The notes under the pieces are model-generated. The model was not told the DNA's origin and made no database searches. It was given only the letters and a program-made list of their open reading frames with translations. Below are positions 2,835-33,898 of a stretch of DNA of 44,255 nucleotides, piece after piece (positions within the stretch are counted from its first letter, which is position 1; each line of letters starts with the position of its first letter). Source of the stretch: a virus (lineage: Duplodnaviria; Heunggongvirae; Uroviricota; Caudoviricetes); the IMG/VR virus record IMGVR_UViG_2690316062_000005; one strand, written 5' to 3'. The translations under genes were made by a program, and so were the position numbers.

Positions 2835-5800
2835 TTATGCCTGAGTACGCAGCGCTTCAAGGCGGCGCAGGTCGAAGTCGTTCAGTTCGTCGGTGTAGTC
2901 AGCAGTGATTGGCGCTGGCCATTCACCTGTGTCGAATCCGGTTGCGATATTGCGCATCGCTTTGCGGTACTCGAGCATACCCAGCTCCAGTAGTTCAGCG
3001 GATGCCTCGATGATGGCGATCCAGTGGTAGTTCTCGTCTTTGTTGACGAAAATCCAGAAGAACTGATCCAGCGCTGCGGTTTCGCAGTACATAGCCGCGC
3101 TCAGGTGATAATCACGTTCAATAATTTCCCGGTGTAGCCTGGCGCGCAGGCTTTCCTGCTTAACATTCCACATGCTGATGGTTTTCAGGTCTGCACCTAT
3201 ACGCACGCCATCCAGGTCGATCTCAAGGTCAGGGCGCACACGAACTTCCAAGCCCGTCTCCTCGTCAAAACCAAAGTAGCTCACCTCAACGGCTCGGCTA
3301 GGGTGGGTCAGCAGCATGCCGGCGGTCGGGTGTGCCAGAAGCGCTTTTTGAATATTCAGCGCGGTGCTCAGCTGCTGGCGGGTGACCAGCACTTTTCCTT
3401 CCGGGTTATCGCGCCAGGCATCCAGCAGTTCGTCGGCAAATACGGCATCTGGTTTGACTGCCTTCACGGCCTGGATCATGTCTGCTTTGGTACCGGACAC
3501 TTTCAGTGGTGCCGGTTTCTGTGCTTCCTGAGCCACAAGGTCAGGGTTGATGATTGCCAACTGCTCCAGCAGCGCGTCACGGCTGCCGCTGGTTTTAACC
3601 GGCGGCGGCAGGGTGGCGTTGTACTCTTTAATGCATGCCTTCATTGCCGTCGCCGTCTGCTTCTGGTCACCATCAATACGCTGGAAGTCAGCTGGCAGCG
3701 CCATATAGTTCTGTGCCGTTTCTTCCAGGTTAGCGCCAAGCGGAACCTGCGGCGGCAGGGTGGCGTTGTACTCTTCCAGTAACACCTTGATGTCGTCGGC
3801 AGACAGCAGCGCCGGCAGGCTGGCATTGTGCTCATCGATAAAGGCGCGCAGGGTCGCGGCCGTTGTGAATGCGCCTTCAGGGATCACCGGTTCAACGCTG
3901 AATTCTGCGTCCAGTAGTTCAGGCTGCAACGCCAGCGCATGCACCAAGTTGCCCATGTCCAGCACCGCTGAGCGCTCTTTGACGATGGTTTTCTCTACGT
4001 GGCGCGCATTGAAGTACATCAGCGAAACGCGCGCATCTTTCACCTGGGTTGAGCTGATGCCGTTGGCGGCGTGGTAAACCTCGTTTGGCAGCCCTTCATA
4101 GCGGCCTGGCTCGAAATAAGCGGGATAAACAACAGCTGGTTCGTCAGATTGCGCTTCTGGCTCGGTTTGTGCTGCAACTGGTTCGGTTTGGCTTACAGAA
4201 TCGCTATTTTTGGCGACAGAATCCGTATTCTGGTCTACATCGTCCTTCTGGCTGGTATCTGACTCTTCACCAGACTCCAGACTGCTTTCGCCTGGCTGTA
4301 CTTCATCACCAGCTTGTTTTTCATCACTGACAGTTTCTTGAACCTGCACATTGCTGGTGGTCTCCGTAGCCTTTTTCGTGCCATGAGTTGCTGAGTTCTG
4401 CAGCAAAGCCGTAACGTCGAATATTCCGTTGCCGACATTTTTAACCAGTTCTTGTTCGACTTTCTGCGGTTGTGCTGCCGCTTCCTCTGCGCGGCGGCGT
4501 GCTCCTTCTTCACGCACGCGTTGCAGGTTCTCTTCGTGAGTGCAGAAGGATTTGCGCGGAGACTCCTTACCTTCAGGTTGGGGAATTTCCTGTGCTGCGG
4601 GTTCAGCCTCATGCAACGGCAATAACTCGACCGCGGAATTGAACGCGGCTGTCATGGTCTGGTTAACAAATTCCAGGTGAGCGACAGGAGTTAAATGAAT
4701 ATTTTCCGGTGCGATACGTACCAGGTTAAAAATAGCCGTGCGGTTAACACCCAGAACGCCTGGCTGATTGCGCAGGATGTTGCTCCATGATTTCCATGGT
4801 TCTTCTTTTTTGGTCACGATTTCTTTAGCGCGACGAAGAATGCTGCCCGGGATCTCGAAGTGGTTGAAGTCCATAGGCAGAAGGGCACACGCAATCTCTA
4901 AATCGAGAGTGTCCAGTGTGTGGTGTGCGTCAGGTCCACGGTCAGTGACGTAACCGCCGTCGGCATTAGTGCCGGAATCAGTACGCTGCACACTACTGAT
5001 GCGATTACCGGCGGCCCATTCGCGAACGAGGATACCGCGGTCGATGTGATCTGTAGCGAACCACAATTTCAAAAACTGGATTAAGGTTGCGAGTTCAGGG
5101 ATTTTTCCATCGACAGGGAAGACTTTCTTAACGGCATTCACGACTTTATGAATATCGTGCTCAATGGCTTTTTTGAATGCTTCCACATTCTCAGCTGCCA
5201 GCAGCAGGTTCTGGACGTACGCGTCATCGGTGTCCATCTCAAGGCGGACAATCTCATTTTTCTGCCCTGCGTCGATGTGATAGAGATATTCACCATCACC
5301 GATGAACTGAGCCAGTACGCGCTGGCGGAATGGCAGGGTGGCAACAACGATCAGGTTCGGTTGCTGTGTCTGCTGGGATTGCTCTTCGGTATCGACTTCA
5401 CCATCAACGACGCCACCTTCTGCCCGGCCGTTCTCGTCGGTCTGGATACCGTCCTCAACAGTGAGATCTTGACCCGTTGTAACGTCAGCAGCGTTGCTGG
5501 TTTCAGTTTTGAGCAACTGCAACTTACCACTGCGCCAGTCTTCTACCAGTTGATTGCGGTCACCGGCATCGGTGTTCACCCAGTCAGACATGAATGCAGC
5601 GATCAATCTTGGTTCGTGCTCTTCGTCTGGTGTGAAAATGTCCTTAACCGCCCGAATCATTTTCCACTCAGCATTCAGGCTGAGTTTGGCGGTCGCGGGC
5701 ACATCGTTCCTTGCCACAAGCAGGCTATGGAGATATGTATTGCCTTCATCCAGTGACATTTCGCTGGCAGCCAACTGCTGCTCTTTAGTGACGTGGGTTT

Positions 5801-6224
5801 GGTATTTATCGTTCATCAGATGGACGGCAAAGCGGACCGCTGGAGTACGGTTTTCAACCGGGACAATTTCGGACGCAGTCGCATCTTCAACGATTACGGT
5901 CGGAGTAGGTGTGTAGGGGGCGTCAACGGAACCAGTAGACACACCAGCGGCTTTTGGCAGCCAGGTGCGCCCATCGTCCTGAAGCTCGTAGCGATCACAC
6001 CAGGTAAAATCAACTTCACCTTCTTTCGGCAGGCCGTCGACAACTGGGAAATCAGTGCGAATCGGTTTGGCGTAGTCCTTACCCCGACCTGTTTCGATAC
6101 CTGCATCTTCCAGCGCAACATCCAGCATCAGATTGGCGCGAGCCTCGGTTTTAGCAGTGAACCAGACCACTGCATCTTGCTTTCCGGATTTCTGAGTGGC
6201 TTTAACCACATTAAAGAATTCCAT
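2835..6224 (-). CDS. recE: Exodeoxyribonuclease VIII (RecE-like) with C-terminal PD-(D/E)XK nuclease domain
   Basis: 1129-aa ORF; GAGGA RBS upstream; long acidic/low-complexity N-terminal region and conserved C-terminal nuclease region; paired with recT as in Rac-type prophages. Confidence 0.7.
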   Translation of the reverse strand: MEFFNVVKATQKSGKQDAVVWFTAKTEARANLMLDVALEDAGIETGRGKDYAKPIRTDFPVVDGLPKEGEVDFTWCDRYELQDDGRTWLPKAAGVSTGSVDAPYTPTPTVIVEDATASEIVPVENRTPAVRFAVHLMNDKYQTHVTKEQQLAASEMSLDEGNTYLHSLLVARNDVPATAKLSLNAEWKMIRAVKDIFTPDEEHEPRLIAAFMSDWVNTDAGDRNQLVEDWRSGKLQLLKTETSNAADVTTGQDLTVEDGIQTDENGRAEGGVVDGEVDTEEQSQQTQQPNLIVVATLPFRQRVLAQFIGDGEYLYHIDAGQKNEIVRLEMDTDDAYVQNLLLAAENVEAFKKAIEHDIHKVVNAVKKVFPVDGKIPELATLIQFLKLWFATDHIDRGILVREWAAGNRISSVQRTDSGTNADGGYVTDRGPDAHHTLDTLDLEIACALLPMDFNHFEIPGSILRRAKEIVTKKEEPWKSWSNILRNQPGVLGVNRTAIFNLVRIAPENIHLTPVAHLEFVNQTMTAAFNSAVELLPLHEAEPAAQEIPQPEGKESPRKSFCTHEENLQRVREEGARRRAEEAAAQPQKVEQELVKNVGNGIFDVTALLQNSATHGTKKATETTSNVQVQETVSDEKQAGDEVQPGESSLESGEESDTSQKDDVDQNTDSVAKNSDSVSQTEPVAAQTEPEAQSDEPAVVYPAYFEPGRYEGLPNEVYHAANGISSTQVKDARVSLMYFNARHVEKTIVKERSAVLDMGNLVHALALQPELLDAEFSVEPVIPEGAFTTAATLRAFIDEHNASLPALLSADDIKVLLEEYNATLPPQVPLGANLEETAQNYMALPADFQRIDGDQKQTATAMKACIKEYNATLPPPVKTSGSRDALLEQLAIINPDLVAQEAQKPAPLKVSGTKADMIQAVKAVKPDAVFADELLDAWRDNPEGKVLVTRQQLSTALNIQKALLAHPTAGMLLTHPSRAVEVSYFGFDEETGLEVRVRPDLEIDLDGVRIGADLKTISMWNVKQESLRARLHREIIERDYHLSAAMYCETAALDQFFWIFVNKDENYHWIAIIEASAELLELGMLEYRKAMRNIATGFDTGEWPAPITADYTDELNDFDLRRLEALRTQA

Positions 6225-6363
6225 GTGAGATCCTCATTTTTGGGTGTTAGAATCCCCGGACCATTGATAGCGCCCATTGGGTTAACTTTGGTTTTAATGT
6301 TGTTTCCGGTGTAACTTTGGTCGGTACCACCGGACGTAGATCCCGCCTTGCGCGGGTTTTACG

Positions 6364-6525
6364 TTAGCCTTCGTGAGCCATCTGGTCGTGCGAAGCGCAA
6401 CGTTTGGAGCAATACTCTTTTTCTTTGCGCGCCAGCTGTGAGCCGTTGCGATAGAGAAGGGTGCTCTTGATTACTTCCTCCGTTTTAACCGGCTTGCCGC
6501 AATATCCGCATTTCTTGTCTAACAT
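6364..6525 (-). CDS. Small zinc-ribbon protein (53 aa), not in the supplied ORF track
   Basis: Hand translation MLDKKCGYCGKPVKTEEVIKSTLLYRNGSQLARKEKEYCSKRCASHDQMAHEG; CxxC ... CxxRC; strong GGAGGA RBS 6 nt upstream of ATG, directly after the stop of the upstream ORF. Confidence 0.45.
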   Translation of the reverse strand: MLDKKCGYCGKPVKTEEVIKSTLLYRNGSQLARKEKEYCSKRCASHDQMAHEG

Positions 6526-6536
6526 GACATCCTCCG

Positions 6537-6902
6537 CTAGTGGCTGAGTCCATGCCCCAGACCGTTCAGATAAACTTCAACCAGCAAATCCCTGGTGTAA
6601 GTCATCTCAACGCCGCGATGCAGATACAAACGACCACGAGCATTAGCTGATGCCGTCCAGGTTGAATCCTTGTGTTTGACGAGCATTCCAGGCTGAACTG
6701 CGCCGCGGTTTACCGTCTGTGTACCGTAGTGCTGATGAACCATGATGTTCTCCACTATTGCTGAGTGAACTTCGCTGGTGGTGCCGTGACGCTGATCTTC
6801 ACAGTTGAGCGTTTTAACTCTGCAGTTCACCACCGCGAAACCCACTCTTATGTGCCTGTCTTTTATCCACTTCAGGCTCGGTGGTATGCTGGTAGTTCTC
6901 AC
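6537..6902 (-). CDS. Hypothetical protein (GTG start)
   Basis: 121-aa ORF; start codon is GTG with no clear RBS; its stop abuts the RBS of the zinc-ribbon ORF. Composition unremarkable; weak support. Confidence 0.3.
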   Translation of the reverse strand: MRTTSIPPSLKWIKDRHIRVGFAVVNCRVKTLNCEDQRHGTTSEVHSAIVENIMVHQHYGTQTVNRGAVQPGMLVKHKDSTWTASANARGRLYLHRGVEMTYTRDLLVEVYLNGLGHGLSH

Positions 6903-6922
6903 ACAGCCAGCAAGGAATAACT

Positions 6923-7216
6923 ATGAAATCAGTAACTAAGCCATGTCCTATTTGTGGTGAAGATTCTTTGTCTTTTAACCAGACAAATCAGTTGGTTAAC
7001 ATCAAAGTAAAACCACCAACTATTCGTGAAGTTCCATCAGTGGTTTACGTTTGCGATACTCACGGATGGTTTTCACTTTCAGAACAGATAAACAGACTCG
7101 TCACATCTAATGACGACCCTGCGGCTAAGCAAAAACTGGCTGTTATTGTCAAAGAGCGATATGTGCCGGAACAGGATCAGCCGTTAGCCCTGAAACCTAT
7201 TGAGTCGCTCGCATAA
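6923..7216 (+). CDS. Small zinc-finger protein (YgiT/MqsA-type zinc-ribbon-like)
   Basis: 97 aa; AAGGA RBS 8 nt upstream; CPICG...(about 30 aa)...CDTHG arrangement; on opposite strand to the surrounding leftward early operon. Confidence 0.45.
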   Translation: MKSVTKPCPICGEDSLSFNQTNQLVNIKVKPPTIREVPSVVYVCDTHGWFSLSEQINRLVTSNDDPAAKQKLAVIVKERYVPEQDQPLALKPIESLA

Positions 7217-7466
7217 GGTCTTTTCGGCTCTCGCTGCGATATCCCAGGCGGTACATTTTCACGTAGGCTTTGCCGCGAGGAATGCCGCCTGTTTTGTTGA
7301 ATCTCTGCTGGGCGCGGCGATGGTGTTTTGCTTCAGGGCTGTTTGAACCTTTCCCGCCATTCGATCGAGAACTTGGGAGTTGCATTGGCTTTTGGCGTGA
7401 ATAGAATTTACGTGCCCAGCATGCTCCAAAGCCGATCATGCCTGTTTTCTTCGTATTACCTTTCAT
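7197..7466 (-). CDS. Small basic protein; candidate N-like antiterminator (first gene downstream of putative pL)
   Basis: 89 aa, rich in Arg/Lys; first ORF transcribed leftward from the putative pL; assignment is by position and composition only. Confidence 0.3.
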   Translation of the reverse strand: MKGNTKKTGMIGFGACWARKFYSRQKPMQLPSSRSNGGKGSNSPEAKHHRRAQQRFNKTGGIPRGKAYVKMYRLGYRSESRKDLMRATQ

Positions 7467-7537
7467 CTCAATCCCCTCGTTTGCCCTTGTCGCCAGGCCA
7501 GCGGAACGTTTGAACTTGATGCGCTTAGTGTTTCTCG

Positions 7538-7590
7538 ATGGGGTGATGATAGCTAAGGCGATTTATTTTATCAATCGCTTAAACGATAAT
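7538..7590 (-). promoter_or_regulatory. Putative pL: -35 TTGATA / -10 TATCAT (minus strand, 17-bp spacer) with overlapping operator-like site
   Basis: Minus-strand hexamers at 7569-7574 and 7546-7551; ATCGCTTAAACGAT (7574-7587) resembles the ATCGC-N4-GCGAT operators at the cI/cro switch. Confidence 0.3.
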
Positions 7591-7911
7591 ATTGTGATTT
7601 TGCCGATTATTATTTGATTTATAAAGTGATTTATTTTTGTATGAGATGCGTGATATGCTCAAAAAAACACCAGGCGGGGATATTGATATGGGTTTAGGAA
7701 TGGATATGTCACGTGATGAGCTGCTGGAAGATCGCGCTGCTTTCATGGCTGGCGAGATTGGCGGTGCAGTTGTCGAGTAGATAATCAACGGTGTGGTGAT
7801 AAGTCGAGATGCGATAGTAGATAGCTTGGAGACTAAGCGTCGCGCGGTTGGAAATGTGATTCACAAAGGAGTGTTGTGGGATGTCACTGCTATGGTGAGA
7901 AAAGGAATATG

Positions 7912-7930
7912 AAAACCGGCATAATGCCGG
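7912..7930 (-). terminator. Intrinsic terminator ending the cI immunity operon
   Basis: CCGGC-ATAAT-GCCGG hairpin (7916-7930) directly after the stop of the 210-aa gene, followed on the minus strand by a U-run (AAAA at 7912-7915 on plus). Confidence 0.5.
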
Positions 7931-7931
7931 T

Positions 7932-8564
7932 TTACTTTGATTTTTCCTGTTGGTGAAGTACTCGTGGAGTAGTTGGTTCTTGAGGTAATTGGATGATAAC
8001 AGGTTGCTGCGCTACTGGTTGAACTACGGGCGGATCACTCTTCAAGGCAGAAACAAGACTAGGTAATGCAACGACAACCGCAATGATAACGCCAAAAATA
8101 GCAAGCCTAGTGGAAATACCTGATTGAATACCGCCAATCGCAGTGTTTATTCCTGTAATTTGCCCTTGTATACCTTCGAATTTGCCATTGATGGCTTTTA
8201 CATCCCCATCAACGCTATCCATTTTCCCTTCAATTTTAGAAGAAATAGAGCTAATAGATGAATTGAGCGATGCCAGCTGAACGTTCATATTCTCGCGTGA
8301 CAAAGCCATTTCAGCTCTAATCGAAGATGCAATGGACTCCATCTCCGCCTTATTGGCAGCTAGAAGTGCTTGCATTTCTTCACGGCTAACTGATGACATT
8401 TCATTTCCCCCATCAGTTTCATTAGCTTCATCTGTTGATTTGATAAAGTTAGTATACATTTCTTCTTTATCGACGCGTAGTCTGTTTTGAACATTGGGGT
8501 ACAGGTCATCTTTATCAATGCCAGAACCGCAGTCTGGGACAGCTTTGAGAGATGGGCCCATCAC
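7932..8564 (-). CDS. Coiled-coil protein with C-terminal transmembrane anchor (unknown function)
   Basis: 210 aa; strong AAGGAG RBS; helical repeat-rich middle; hydrophobic segment LAIFGVIIAVVVALPSLVSAL near C-terminus then Pro/Gln-rich tail; start overlaps stop of upstream gene. Confidence 0.6.
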   Translation of the reverse strand: MMGPSLKAVPDCGSGIDKDDLYPNVQNRLRVDKEEMYTNFIKSTDEANETDGGNEMSSVSREEMQALLAANKAEMESIASSIRAEMALSRENMNVQLASLNSSISSISSKIEGKMDSVDGDVKAINGKFEGIQGQITGINTAIGGIQSGISTRLAIFGVIIAVVVALPSLVSALKSDPPVVQPVAQQPVIIQLPQEPTTPRVLHQQEKSK

Positions 8565-8923
8565 TTCCCATCCTCTCCTTGATCTTCTTTTCTTTTATTA
8601 ATCAGTGTCCTGGCTTTTTTATAAGAAAAAAGCAGTACATGTGCGCAGTGATCACACGTGATTCGAAATAGTGGCATACCGCCAGGATATGTCACAGCAC
8701 TATCAGTATCAGGTTTGTATTGTGCATAACTAAGTGTTTCGATCACATGATGTTTTGGCTGATTTTCTTCTACATCAAGATCAAAGGCACCAACTACAGA
8801 CCATGACTGGTTCCCGCAGATTTGGCAAGTTATTGGTTTTTTGAATGAATTTATGAAATCAATGAACTCATCCGCTGTGATAATCTCGGAGTTTGCTTCA
8901 CTATGAAATAATTCCGATTTCAT
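8561..8923 (-). CDS. Zinc-ribbon protein (unknown function)
   Basis: Start moved to internal ATG (MKSELFH...) with AAGGA RBS; CQIC ... CDHC pair; 120 aa; 44 bp downstream of cI on the same strand. Confidence 0.55.
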   Translation of the reverse strand: MKSELFHSEANSEIITADEFIDFINSFKKPITCQICGNQSWSVVGAFDLDVEENQPKHHVIETLSYAQYKPDTDSAVTYPGGMPLFRITCDHCAHVLLFSYKKARTLINKRKEDQGEDGK

Positions 8924-8967
8924 AATTATGATCCTTTTCTGGGCCAAAGTAGATAAAAAGTACAGTT

Positions 8968-9651
8968 TTACAATCGGTTATACTTTATTGATTCATGAAT
9001 CAATGCCTTACCCATTACGTAGAGTTGATCCTGATTACCTTCGTTAATGTACCACTTCTCATAAGCTGAGTTATCAGACAAAACTGCCAACCTATCGCCC
9101 TGCATCTGCAAGCGCTTCACATGGAAATGTTGTCCGAAAACGAACGCATAAACACCGTCGACCTTGAAGTTTCTTACAGAAATATCGAAAAACAATCTGT
9201 CACCAGACTGTATAGTTGGACACATGCTGTCGCCATCGACCGTCATTACTTTTACGTCTTCCTGAGAACGATTTCCGAAGAGTGAACGAGCGTGTTCGGT
9301 TGTGAACTCAATGGCGTGTAGAACCTCAACAAACTCAGAAATCATGAAAGAACCTGGCCCCGCGCTAAATGTCAGGTCAAGTACGTCAACTCTGAATATG
9401 TTTGAGTCTTTTTTTGTCGCGGTAATGGGAGGCGGTAGCTGGCCATCGTTACGCATCGGTCCGGATCCCGTGGAAAGCCATTCAGGGCGAACATTGAGAA
9501 CAGAAGCTATCTCGACCGTTTTTCTTGAGCTTGATGCACCATTTAGCAGCTTGTTAACACTTGACTGTGCCATGCCAACTGCCTTAGCTAGCTTGCCCTG
9601 TGTATAACCCGCCTCATTCATTGCGCGATCTAATCGCTCAGAAAAACTCAT
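8968..9651 (-). CDS. cI: CI-like prophage repressor (HTH + S24/LexA-type autopeptidase domain)
   Basis: Start set at MSFSERLDRAMNEAGYTQGKLAKAVG (HTH); C-terminal GDSM (Ser) and HVKRL (Lys) dyad of S24 peptidases; divergent from cro with operators between. Confidence 0.85.
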   Translation of the reverse strand: MSFSERLDRAMNEAGYTQGKLAKAVGMAQSSVNKLLNGASSSRKTVEIASVLNVRPEWLSTGSGPMRNDGQLPPPITATKKDSNIFRVDVLDLTFSAGPGSFMISEFVEVLHAIEFTTEHARSLFGNRSQEDVKVMTVDGDSMCPTIQSGDRLFFDISVRNFKVDGVYAFVFGQHFHVKRLQMQGDRLAVLSDNSAYEKWYINEGNQDQLYVMGKALIHESIKYNRL

Positions 9652-9679
9652 TAAAGATACCCCCCTAATAACCTTCATA

Positions 9680-9760
9680 AATATTATCGCCACAGCGATT
9701 AATAAGCAAAAAATCGCATAGGCGATTGACATTCGTTAAAGCGATAAACATAATCAACCT
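9680..9760. promoter_or_regulatory. Immunity switch: two 14-bp palindromic operators with divergent pRM / pR promoters
   Basis: ATCGCCACAGCGAT (9686-9699) and ATCGCATAGGCGAT (9713-9726); pR -35 TTGACA (9726-9731) and -10 CATAAT (9749-9754), 17-bp spacer; pRM on minus strand -35 TTGCTT (9704-9709) and -10 TAATAT (9681-9686), 17-bp spacer. Confidence 0.55.
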
Positions 9761-9781
9761 AAATTGATAGAAGGAGCGATT

Positions 9782-10012
9782 ATGAAAAACCCTGCTGTAG
9801 AAAAAGCGATTGCAATCGCCGGTAGTCAGAAAGAGCTAGCGAAGCGATGTGGTAAGGCCCAATCCACGGTCTGTGACTGGTTAAATGGGAAAAAACAAAT
9901 CTCCCCGATCCATGTTCCTGTTTTGGTAAAGGCAAGCGAAGGACAGATTCAAGCTCATGAATTCCGTCCCGACCTTCCTGAATTGTTTCCGCATCCACAT
10001 TCAGCCGCCTGA
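9782..10012 (+). CDS. cro: Cro-like HTH regulator
   Basis: 76 aa from ATG with AGGAG RBS; HTH-like segment GSQKELAKRCGKAQSTVCDWLNG; divergent from cI. Confidence 0.6.
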   Translation: MKNPAVEKAIAIAGSQKELAKRCGKAQSTVCDWLNGKKQISPIHVPVLVKASEGQIQAHEFRPDLPELFPHPHSAA

Positions 10013-10043
10013 CCGGCGGCGCTAACCATCAAGGGAAAGCACT

Positions 10044-10583
10044 ATGCAATCACTTACGTTTTACCAGGATACAGGAGTACCGCAACAAGCGGTGATAAAT
10101 CGCGCTCAAACCTATAAGGGGCCGTGTCACGAAGATATTCGAAATGCCGTTCGTTCATGGGCGGGTGTAGATGGTCAGGATGTCGTTTCTGCTCTGATCG
10201 TCGAAGAGTACCGGGCGCAGGGTGGTTATGACATCACTTTCCCTGACGATCTCTGCCGAAAGCGGCAGAAGCTTTTCCGCTTCCTGGATAACCATTTCAA
10301 CAGCGAACGGTACCGTGAGAACGTTCGCCAGCTGACTCCGGCAATCCTGGCGGTCCTGCCGATTGAATACCGCAACCGTCTGCTACCAGAAGACAACGTT
10401 ATGGCCCGCCTGGCTCGGCTGGAGAAAGAAACCAGCGAAGCGAAGATTGCCGTCGCAATGGATGCGCCACGCCATCAAAAGCTGAAAGAGTTGAGCGAGG
10501 GGATCGTGGAGATGTATCGCGTTGACCCTGGGTTAACCGGTCCACTGATGGAGATGGTGCAGATGATGCTGGGGGCTATATGA
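10044..10583 (+). CDS. CII-like / YdaT-like early regulatory protein
   Basis: 179 aa immediately after cro and before O; family assignment by position and vague recall only. Confidence 0.4.
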   Translation: MQSLTFYQDTGVPQQAVINRAQTYKGPCHEDIRNAVRSWAGVDGQDVVSALIVEEYRAQGGYDITFPDDLCRKRQKLFRFLDNHFNSERYRENVRQLTPAILAVLPIEYRNRLLPEDNVMARLARLEKETSEAKIAVAMDAPRHQKLKELSEGIVEMYRVDPGLTGPLMEMVQMMLGAI

Positions 10584-10667
10584 CCGGTTCAAAAATGGCG
10601 AAAGCCGCGGTGCGCGAACACCAACGGCTTTCAGGTGCAAAAACAGTGCGTAATTGCGGAGAACAGT

Positions 10668-11576
10668 ATGTCAAACACCGCTGAAATAATCAATTTCCCA
10701 AATAAAACCGAACAACCGGGAGGTCGTATGGCCGACCTGTCGAACGGGTATACCAAGGTCGCTAACGAGATCCAACAGCTTAAGCCTCGCCTGAGACTGT
10801 CAGGCCGGGAATGGCAATGTTTTGAGGCGGTGATCTGGCTTACCTACGGCTGGAACAAGAAACAGGACCGCGTGACAAATACGGTTATTGCCGAGCTTAC
10901 GGGCCTGAGCGATACGCATGTATCGGACGCGCTTAAGTCTCTCGCAGAACGCAAAATCATCTTTTCACAGAAGCAGGGCATGATGAAAATCGTCGGTGTA
11001 AACACTGACCTTTCAGCATGGATTTTAGACAAACCGGAAACGGGAAGAAAATTCCCGAAAACGGGAAAATCCTTCCCGAAATCAGGAATAACCTTCCCGA
11101 AAACGGTAGACACCCAATACAAGAACAAGAACAGTATTAAAAGATCTTCGTCCGAGAATTCTGACGAATCCTCTGACGCACGTCTGAAGAAATTTTTATC
11201 AACTCATCCTGAAGCTGCGGTCTACACACCATCCGGTGCGAAGTGGGGCTCTGCTGAAGACCTCGAGACAGCTAAGTGGATTTCCTCCAGGGTGAAGCTG
11301 ATTAACCCAACCTGCAAAGCCCCGGACATGACCTCCTGGTCTAACACTGTTCGCCTGATGCGCCAGATAGACAACCGGTCGCACCAGGACATCTGCGCGC
11401 TGTATGACTGGGCTAGCAAACACCACTTCTGGCAGACCAACATCCTGAGTCCCGAAAGCCTGCGTAAGCAGTGGGACAAGCTGACAATGCAGCGTAACGC
11501 CGGAGGTGAGCAGCGCGCTGTCAAGCCAGATCTGGACTTCAACAACACTGACTGGGCCTATGGGGTGATCCGATGA
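10668..11576 (+). CDS. O: Replication initiation protein O (lambda O family)
   Basis: N-terminal O-like domain; internal FPKTGKSFPKSGITFPKT repeats encoded by ori iterons; GGAG RBS before ATG at 10668. Confidence 0.8.
   Translation: MSNTAEIINFPNKTEQPGGRMADLSNGYTKVANEIQQLKPRLRLSGREWQCFEAVIWLTYGWNKKQDRVTNTVIAELTGLSDTHVSDALKSLAERKIIFSQKQGMMKIVGVNTDLSAWILDKPETGRKFPKTGKSFPKSGITFPKTVDTQYKNKNSIKRSSSENSDESSDARLKKFLSTHPEAAVYTPSGAKWGSAEDLETAKWISSRVKLINPTCKAPDMTSWSNTVRLMRQIDNRSHQDICALYDWASKHHFWQTNILSPESLRKQWDKLTMQRNAGGEQRAVKPDLDFNNTDWAYGVIR
11031..11110 (+). repeat. ori-like iterons inside O gene
   Basis: TTCCCGAAA recurring at 11052, 11073 and 11094 (21-bp period) within partially palindromic units, followed by an AT-rich stretch (11101-11150), as in lambda ori. 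Confidence 0.6.
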
Positions 11577-32996: not shown

Positions 32997-33356
32997 ATGG
33001 GCGTGGACTGGGATTCTCATCTTCTGAGTCCGCTGCATGATGTCTTTGGCGATGAGCACGAGTACCGTCCACGTAACGGTACTCCTTTTACAATTAACGG
33101 GATTTTTGACCGTGGTTATGCGCAGGTTGCTGAAAACCTTGATGGCGATTCAGAAATTAACACCTCCAGCCCGATGTTGGGTGTGCGCGATGCTGAATTT
33201 CGCAAGCTGGGTAAATCGCAACCTGCTGTATCTGACCGGGTATTTATAAAGACGGTCGGTGGTCACATCATCAATCAGTTATTTGTTGTGTCAAACGTCG
33301 AACCCGACAGTCATGGCGGATCTCGTCTTGTCCTCAATGTGGTAAAACCGCGATGA
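32997..33356 (+). CDS. Head completion / head-tail adaptor-like protein
   Basis: 119 aa from ATG 32997; positional assignment. Confidence 0.45.
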   Translation: MGVDWDSHLLSPLHDVFGDEHEYRPRNGTPFTINGIFDRGYAQVAENLDGDSEINTSSPMLGVRDAEFRKLGKSQPAVSDRVFIKTVGGHIINQLFVVSNVEPDSHGGSRLVLNVVKPR

Positions 33357-33898
33357 ATTCAGCAGCGATACGGCAAATGGTTGTCACTGCACTAACCGGG
33401 ACAACCAGCGCGGGCGACCGCGTATTCTCTCCACGCGACTGGTCAACTTCACCAGATATGTATCCTGTGTTGTTGGTTCAGACGCCTTTTGAACAGAAAA
33501 AATCACAGGGGCGTAATACCCCTGCTTTTACCACCCTCACCACTGTCAGGATCACTGGGCGCGTTCAGGAGTATGACGGCGATACAGTGGATGATGGAGC
33601 CATGCGGGCAGAGCTGGCGCTTGAAAGCCTTCGCGAGCAGGTGGAGCGCGCGGTGATCAACAGCTACGAACTGACGCGGAATATTCAGAAATACGCGGAA
33701 GTTCGTTCAACCATCAATGTTGATTCAGAAGGAGAGGCCCATATGGGGCAGCTTCTTTTCGAGATCGACATAGAGCATTACCAGGGGCCGGAAGATTTTT
33801 ATCCTGTCCAGTCGGTTCCCCTTGAGGGCATGGATATTGCGGTCGATATGCCAGACGGCACAGTTAAACCGGGTATCAGCCTCAATCTTCAGGAGTAA
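33353..33898 (+). CDS. Putative tail completion / neck protein
   Basis: 181 aa; ATGA overlap; position before sheath. Confidence 0.45.
   Translation: MNSAAIRQMVVTALTGTTSAGDRVFSPRDWSTSPDMYPVLLVQTPFEQKKSQGRNTPAFTTLTTVRITGRVQEYDGDTVDDGAMRAELALESLREQVERAVINSYELTRNIQKYAEVRSTINVDSEGEAHMGQLLFEIDIEHYQGPEDFYPVQSVPLEGMDIAVDMPDGTVKPGISLNLQE

Follow-up and report, generated by a model that had tools for sequence, protein, structure and literature searches.

The window, i.e., the whole stretch of 44,255 nucleotides analysed here, is a Rac-like lambdoid prophage of E. coli, and its segment 7470-7960 is 100% identical to NZ_LT883142. Within this segment, an open reading frame (ORF) of 41 codons on the plus strand (7655-7780) had been flagged in a preliminary description as a possible small gene. 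This ORF exists as described, its translation being exactly MLKKTPGGDIDMGLGMDMSRDELLEDRAAFMAGEIGGAVVE followed by a stop codon, and its placement between pL and the terminator of the immunity operon is correct, as a pL-like promoter, OL operators, and a hairpin at 7913-7933 were all located. The features of the interval are the following:

7546..7587, minus strand: pL-like promoter, predicted to be the early leftward promoter (-35 TTGATA 7574-7569, -10 TATCAT 7551-7546; 10 of 12 matches in a scan for sigma-70-type promoters)
7549-7562 and 7574-7587: OL operators ATAGCTAAGGCGAT and ATCGCTTAAACGAT, respectively, overlapping the pL-like promoter, each with one mismatch to the 14-bp palindrome ATCGCnnnnGCGAT
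7628..7659, plus strand: predicted promoter of the small gene, with GATTTATTTTT (7628-7638) as AT-rich -35 region and TGATATGCT (7651-7659; hexamer TATGCT 7654-7659) as extended -10 element
7655..7780, plus strand: flagged 41-codon ORF, which extends from within this promoter through the 5' leader up to codon 30 of the broken gene (codon 24 when counted from the RefSeq start)
7660..7687, plus strand: conserved 5' leader, in which CAAAAAAACACCAG precedes GGCGGGGA (7673-7680) as Shine-Dalgarno sequence (alignment of 21 loci)
7688..7912, plus strand: YmgB/AriR-like pseudogene (phrog_3975), 74 codons from ATG 7688 or 68 from ATG 7706, with TGA at 7910-7912
7778..7780, plus strand: in-frame amber codon TAG replacing TTG (Leu25 in the 68-residue numbering), a hydrophobic position of helix 1
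7913..7945, both strands: bidirectional intrinsic terminator, composed of the hairpin AAACCGGCATAATGCCGGTTT (7913-7933) and a U-rich tract on either strand (terminator scan)

Borders and neighbors of the interval

The segment 7546-7587 is considered to be the OL/pL region because it shares its ATCGCnnnnGCGAT operators with the intergenic region between repressor and cro genes. There, the only two perfect copies of the palindrome in the window are encountered (9686-9699 and 9713-9726), with the gene for a LexA-family repressor (8968-9651, minus strand) on one side and a cro-like gene on the far side. The OL/pL region is the left border of the interval and lies outside the small-gene cassette. 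At 7540-7660 the G+C content drops to 31%, compared to 51% for the whole window. No third OL operator with up to two mismatches to ATCGCnnnnGCGAT is present near the small-gene promoter (7588-7650), and inspection by eye gave no convincing weaker site there.

On the right side, the small gene and the immunity operon, which converge, both end at the terminator (7913-7945). Its hairpin folds on both strands, with z scores of -3.7 (plus) and -3.8 (minus), and the stop codon (7932-7934) of the last immunity-operon gene, which codes for a protein of 209 amino acids (7932-8561, minus strand), is located inside the terminator stem. A GC-rich hairpin also follows directly 3' of the small-gene stop codon in a prophage of E. 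coli O157:H16 (L003), while in locus L002 and in phage phi80 shorter CCGG(G)C...GCCGG(G) stems occur after the gene, with fold energies not above those of shuffled controls.

Some neighboring genes deserve mention in their own right. The gene for the 209-amino acid protein and the adjacent one for a 120-amino acid protein (8561-8923, minus strand) follow the repressor gene downstream, in the position of rexB/rexA, and their linkage to this repressor is constant in the loci compared. The larger protein has a coiled coil and a hydrophobic segment at its C-terminus, the smaller one carries CxxC motifs, and neither gave a Pfam match above threshold or a PADLOC match. This pair could be a candidate for an undescribed exclusion or defence pair. 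To the left of pL, two genes (6923-7216, plus strand, and 7197-7466, minus strand) code for a 97-amino acid CxxC protein and an Arg-rich 89-amino acid protein, the latter in the N position, first after pL, and the former convergent on it. Neither protein has a Pfam match, and both genes are absent from several prophages with the same immunity module, in which pL leads directly to kilR. Further left, between the start of recE and ydaE and antisense to the pL operon, 6266-6362 (plus strand) matches the Salmonella Hfq-binding sRNA isrB of Rfam below threshold (28.6 bits versus a gathering threshold of 35; E = 0.032) but over the full model length.

The reading frame beyond the amber codon

Past the TAG at 7778-7780 the frame is open up to the TGA at 7910-7912, which adjoins the terminator hairpin, and in the four identical E. 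coli records that were examined, RefSeq lists 7706-7912 as a CDS with the remark "hypothetical protein, internal stop". If the stop is read as Leu, the encoded protein matches phrog_3975, a PHROGs family of unknown function, with an E value of 2.1e-34 over positions 1-67 of 68; full-length matches to phrog_3975 have E values from 2e-34 to 7e-38. It is solely through homology that the stretch can be read as coding, and the homologous frame is longer than the flagged ORF, extending to 7912, and starts later, at 7688 or 7706. Conservation in related prophages, which had been named beforehand as a test, is indeed observed, since the protein-coding stretch is kept in them.

The long frame is a real protein-coding gene under strong purifying selection, because dN/dS values for intact homologues range from 0.01 to 0.2, with dS saturated. 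Between the two loci L003 and L004, 29 synonymous changes stand against 4 non-synonymous ones. Of 20 variable ORF sites, 15 are third codon positions, and homologues can be followed at the protein level to 35-40% identity.

The stop at 7778-7780 is a lineage-specific nonsense mutation, TTG to TAG, inside this gene of 68 or 74 codons, and at the amber column 177 of 185 family members have Leu. Five complete E. coli genomes possess the same immunity module, and each of them shows at least 99.4% identity to the window in this region. Two E. coli prophages with other immunity modules possess an intact 68-codon gene at the same place, with TTG for TAG. An intact sister allele (L046, GCA_900448005.1) has the same immunity module and differs from the window in only 3 of 360 nucleotides, i.e., at 7624, at 7747 (Ile14 to Met), and at 7779, where T in L046 (TTG) is A in the window (TAG). 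The exact truncated product of 41 amino acids is encoded on 813 contigs, whereas the intact sister allele is found on about 10-17 contigs, depending on which of three alternative gene calls is counted. Such a prevalence of the amber allele is compatible with neutral hitch-hiking and is not proof of functionlessness. A variant protein of 85 amino acids (P0193, 7 contigs) has CAG (Gln) at the amber position in the Met14 background; either TAG arose directly from this codon, or the variant is a revertant with a restored frame.

In helix 3, the allele lineage displays the rare residues R58W, A60V, A61T, and Q68I. That they represent decay after the nonsense mutation was considered and rejected; the intact L046 has the same residues, and they therefore predate the stop. 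Among the truncated copies, signs of relaxed constraint are a G19D exchange at the most conserved glycine of the family (P0209, 26 contigs) and a further frameshift in a variant 3' half (P0149).

A single T to A change at 7779 would stop translation after helix 1, and the residual peptide of 24-30 residues would be unable to form the three-helix bundle expected for the intact protein (see below), so that the copy in the window is most likely dead. We therefore interpret the flagged ORF, with a probability of roughly 88%, as the 5' fragment of an inactivated small cassette gene for a YmgB/AriR-like protein. Rather than a new small gene, the feature is the pseudogene of a phage family that is known, though uncharacterised, and RefSeq already flags it as such.

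It seems unlikely that the interrupted gene is still functional, be it by read-through or suppression of the amber codon, by the helix-1 peptide alone, or by re-initiation at GTG 7793, which would provide the C-terminal 39 residues. The dominance of the amber allele in the prophage lineage speaks for residual function, as does the lack of accumulated frameshifts downstream of the stop in the copies read, and the CAG codon of P0193 might reflect restoration of the frame. However, natural E. coli isolates are generally devoid of amber suppressors, no Shine-Dalgarno sequence precedes GTG 7793, and helix 1 by itself would not build the bundle. Truncated alleles altered at the most conserved residue, such as P0209, and the additional frameshift of P0149 also argue against function, and disrupted copies are common in other species, being present in 4 of 15 species-level loci (L014, L023, L024, and L025).

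Promoter, leader, and start codon

In order to compare upstream regions, the 130 nucleotides before the gene were aligned for 21 loci. As the operators differ between phages, sequences are unrelated upstream of a conserved block, which consists, in this order, of the AT-rich ATTTATTTTT, a spacer of about 15 nucleotides, TGnTATGCT, CAAAAAAACAyCAG, a purine-rich Shine-Dalgarno sequence, and the ATG. Although the flanking operators are unrelated between loci, ATTTATTTTT and TGnTATGCT are situated at a fixed distance from the start codon. In 14 of 24 loci, an exact TGnTAnnnT precedes the start by 32-39 nucleotides, and near variants occur in most of the others. We infer that the TGnTATGCT block is an extended -10 promoter followed by a leader; a generic sigma-70 scan did not call the small-gene promoter because its -35 region is weak. 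In phi80, the annotated operator OL3 (locus L009, 2923-2942) directly adjoins the -35 region predicted for the small gene (TATGCT at 2965-2970), and CI bound at OL3 of phi80 could influence this putative promoter. As such an abutment is not general, repressor control of the small gene is not claimed.

The ATG codon at 7688-7690, to which the preliminary description had drawn attention as an internal start with GGCGGGGA at 7673-7680 as ribosome-binding site, is present with a spacing of 7 nucleotides and aligns with the family start codon in other clades. In the clade of the window, an 18-nucleotide insertion (six codons, MGLGMD) separates it from the RefSeq start at 7706 (MSRDE...). Among the closest six loci, all three variable sites in the 18 nucleotides following ATG 7688 are synonymous third positions, which modestly favors ATG 7688 (74 codons) over ATG 7706, and ATG 7688 is probably the real start.

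That the 41-codon ORF is a genuine and independent gene for a small protein, as had initially been considered possible, is very improbable. Its presence, intact and identical, in many assemblies, where gene callers report a hypothetical protein (the exact product on those 813 contigs), might be quoted in its favor, together with the fact that ATG 7655 is in frame in Kluyvera georgiana (L013) as well. Yet the copies are identical over 7610-7960, which reflects recent spread and not selection, and 68 ORFs of at least 25 codons exist in 5500-10500, so that a length of 41 codons alone is not above chance. The ATG at 7655-7657 is the one inside the conserved TATGCT of TGATATGCT, and of 21 loci only two have it in frame, i.e., the window and K. 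georgiana; in four of the six closest loci the frame from this ATG is broken by a 1-nucleotide indel, and in another clade by a 20-nucleotide deletion. More generally, leader lengths differ by 1 nucleotide among members of the closest clade and by a larger indel from one clade to another, irrespective of reading frame. No homologue has the stop at 7778; with regard to every one of them and to the sister allele L046 it is a single-base nonsense change, and after this stop the conserved remainder of the family continues in frame. The limits of the 41-codon ORF are an artefact of the nonsense mutation and of an ATG that is in frame by chance within a promoter motif. Thereby an annotation is corrected: what gene callers report on hundreds of E. 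coli contigs as a 41-codon "hypothetical protein" is a fragment truncated by a nonsense mutation, and its apparent start codon probably belongs to a promoter.

Likewise very improbable is that the conserved element acts as RNA or DNA, for example through an sRNA or antisense RNA that is terminated by the bidirectional hairpin, or as an upstream activating region of pL, for although the 5' block (AT-rich tract, TGnTATGCT, and CAAAAAAACA) is conserved at the DNA level irrespective of frame, and the amber allele would still yield an RNA of about 270 nucleotides ending at the terminator, ORF variation falls overwhelmingly on third codon positions (the 15 of 20 sites given above), dN/dS values are low and protein homologues can be traced far, and a search of 6000-11000 against Rfam with E values up to 1 gave no RNA family within 7470-7960.

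Distribution of phrog_3975 and likeness to YmgB/AriR

At 90% identity the family falls into 609 clusters, for which Salmonella, Citrobacter, and E. coli are the main sources; at 50% identity it has 71 representatives, and all members are named "hypothetical" or "Bacteriophage protein". Members are also encoded by the phages SW-37, HK225 (gp41), HK639 (HK639_46), and phi80, the last of which has an intact unannotated copy (ORF 33351-33539; positions 2998-3207 of locus L009 correspond to 33348-33557 of NC_021190.1). At the nucleotide level, megablast against phage genomes gave no match to the region and a distant blastn search detected Salmonella phage SW-37 only. Pfam and NCBIfam gave no significant family for the homologues, PADLOC only single-member matches at chance level, and BFVD viral structures nothing informative. 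Searches of the literature found no paper on this ORF or on phage-borne AriR homologues.

In every context examined, the gene is located immediately beyond OL/pL, is transcribed away from pL, and is convergent on the last gene of the cI operon, while repressors and passenger genes of the cI operon vary by locus (HK225, phi80, HK639, and prophages of E. coli and Salmonella). The gene in the window has the same position as the members of HK225, phi80, and HK639 but differs from them by its internal amber codon and by the N-terminal extension MGLGMD of its clade, which is absent from the phage members.

Morons of lambdoid phages are autonomous transcription units, each equipped with a promoter and a terminator and lodged between phage genes, a concept that reportedly goes back to Juhala et al. 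in 2000. The cassette resembles them in that a single small ORF is found between a conserved promoter-like block and a hairpin terminator, the latter (7913-7933, z = -3.7) following directly after the ORF. Like a moron, the cassette can be present or missing between modules that are syntenic apart from it, and homology starts and stops at its borders. It differs in that its promoter is a predicted one and in that the insertion site, from OL to the immunity terminator, is unusually constant across immunity types.

A profile built from 40 diverse family members and run with hmmsearch against PDB sequences retrieved one solved structure, E. coli YmgB/AriR (2oxl_A), with an E value of 1e-4 over 48 ungapped columns. 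Alignment of the family with YmgB by hhalign gave a probability of 79% and an E value of 1.6e-5, and aligned the LRDAA motif of the family in such a way that R58 falls on R74 of YmgB. The AlphaFold2 model of an intact family member (P0001), calculated with the 40-member alignment, has a pLDDT of 93.2 and helices at 3-27, 34-47, and 51-66. When this model was compared to the PDB with Foldseek, 2oxl_A ranked first by two orders of magnitude (probability 1.00, TM 0.79/0.86), and the family model superposes on 2OXL as a three-helix bundle. The gathering threshold of PF10798 was not reached by any of three homologues scanned singly, and only 3 of 40 members gave weak matches, the best one with an E value of 0.016. 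Identity to YmgB is only about 20%, and as the Pfam threshold is not reached either, the function of the family may have diverged from that of YmgB. The phage protein (68-74 amino acids) lacks the 24 N-terminal residues of YmgB (88 amino acids; PDB 2OXL, PF10798). YmgB is a small connector protein of the BluR-controlled four-gene host operon ycgZ-ymgABC, whereas the phage family is phage-borne, has a fixed place beside OL/pL, and is apparently a single-gene unit.

[quoted passage not shown] SpoT binding, activation of the Rcs phosphorelay, and homodimerisation are all known for YmgB (PMC10704370; PMC3509220), the connection to Rcs having been described in PMC3509220. In the column equivalent to R74, Arg is present in 160 of 176 family members; Trp occupies it in the allele of the window and in the intact sister L046. 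The copy in the window thus departs from YmgB in two ways, being cut after helix 1 and belonging to an allele lineage with Trp at this place. Judging from these residues (W at the R74 equivalent, V60, T61, and I68), even an intact form of this allele lineage may not bind SpoT.

A mechanism can be proposed from these similarities. In many lambdoid phages and prophages of Enterobacteriaceae, the cassette has its place between the OL/pL control region on one side and the 3' end of the cI operon on the other; its ORF of 68-74 codons is preceded by a predicted promoter of the extended -10 type and by a short leader containing a Shine-Dalgarno sequence, and is followed by a hairpin terminator. Its intact product is a three-helix protein of the YmgB/AriR fold, which would act, like E. 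coli YmgB, by contact with host signalling proteins, with the regulatory domains of SpoT, leading to increased ppGpp, and the Rcs phosphorelay as candidate targets, and altered stress or biofilm physiology of the host as a possible consequence. On the basis of the fold and of one conserved residue we tentatively suggest that the phage family is a small protein-binding modulator of host signalling, and it would then amount to a self-contained moron modulating SpoT or Rcs. Somewhat more speculative is the idea that phrog_3975 proteins mimic YmgB/AriR from their cassette beside OL in order to re-tune SpoT/(p)ppGpp or Rcs in lysogens or during early infection, and that in the E. coli lineage, where the amber knock-out far outnumbers the intact allele (about 813 versus 10-17 contigs), loss of the gene was perhaps favored in this host.

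The assignment of the family to the YmgB/AriR fold with conservation of the SpoT-binding arginine is the only new element here. A widespread but unnamed family of small proteins from lambdoid phages is a distant homologue of YmgB/AriR and retains the arginine that YmgB requires for binding SpoT. For the conserved gene next to pL in phi80, HK225, HK639, and many prophages of Salmonella and Citrobacter, this offers the hypothesis that phages might manipulate the stringent response or Rcs.

As a separate observation, the pL operon of the E. coli O157:H16 prophage L003 (NZ_CP062876.1) encodes a RelA/SpoT-domain protein of 371 amino acids (1069-2184 of the locus, minus strand) about 0.8 kb from the intact YmgB-like gene. 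This protein has the size of a fused toxic small alarmone synthetase, and its vicinity is curious as YmgB acts on SpoT, but may be a coincidence.
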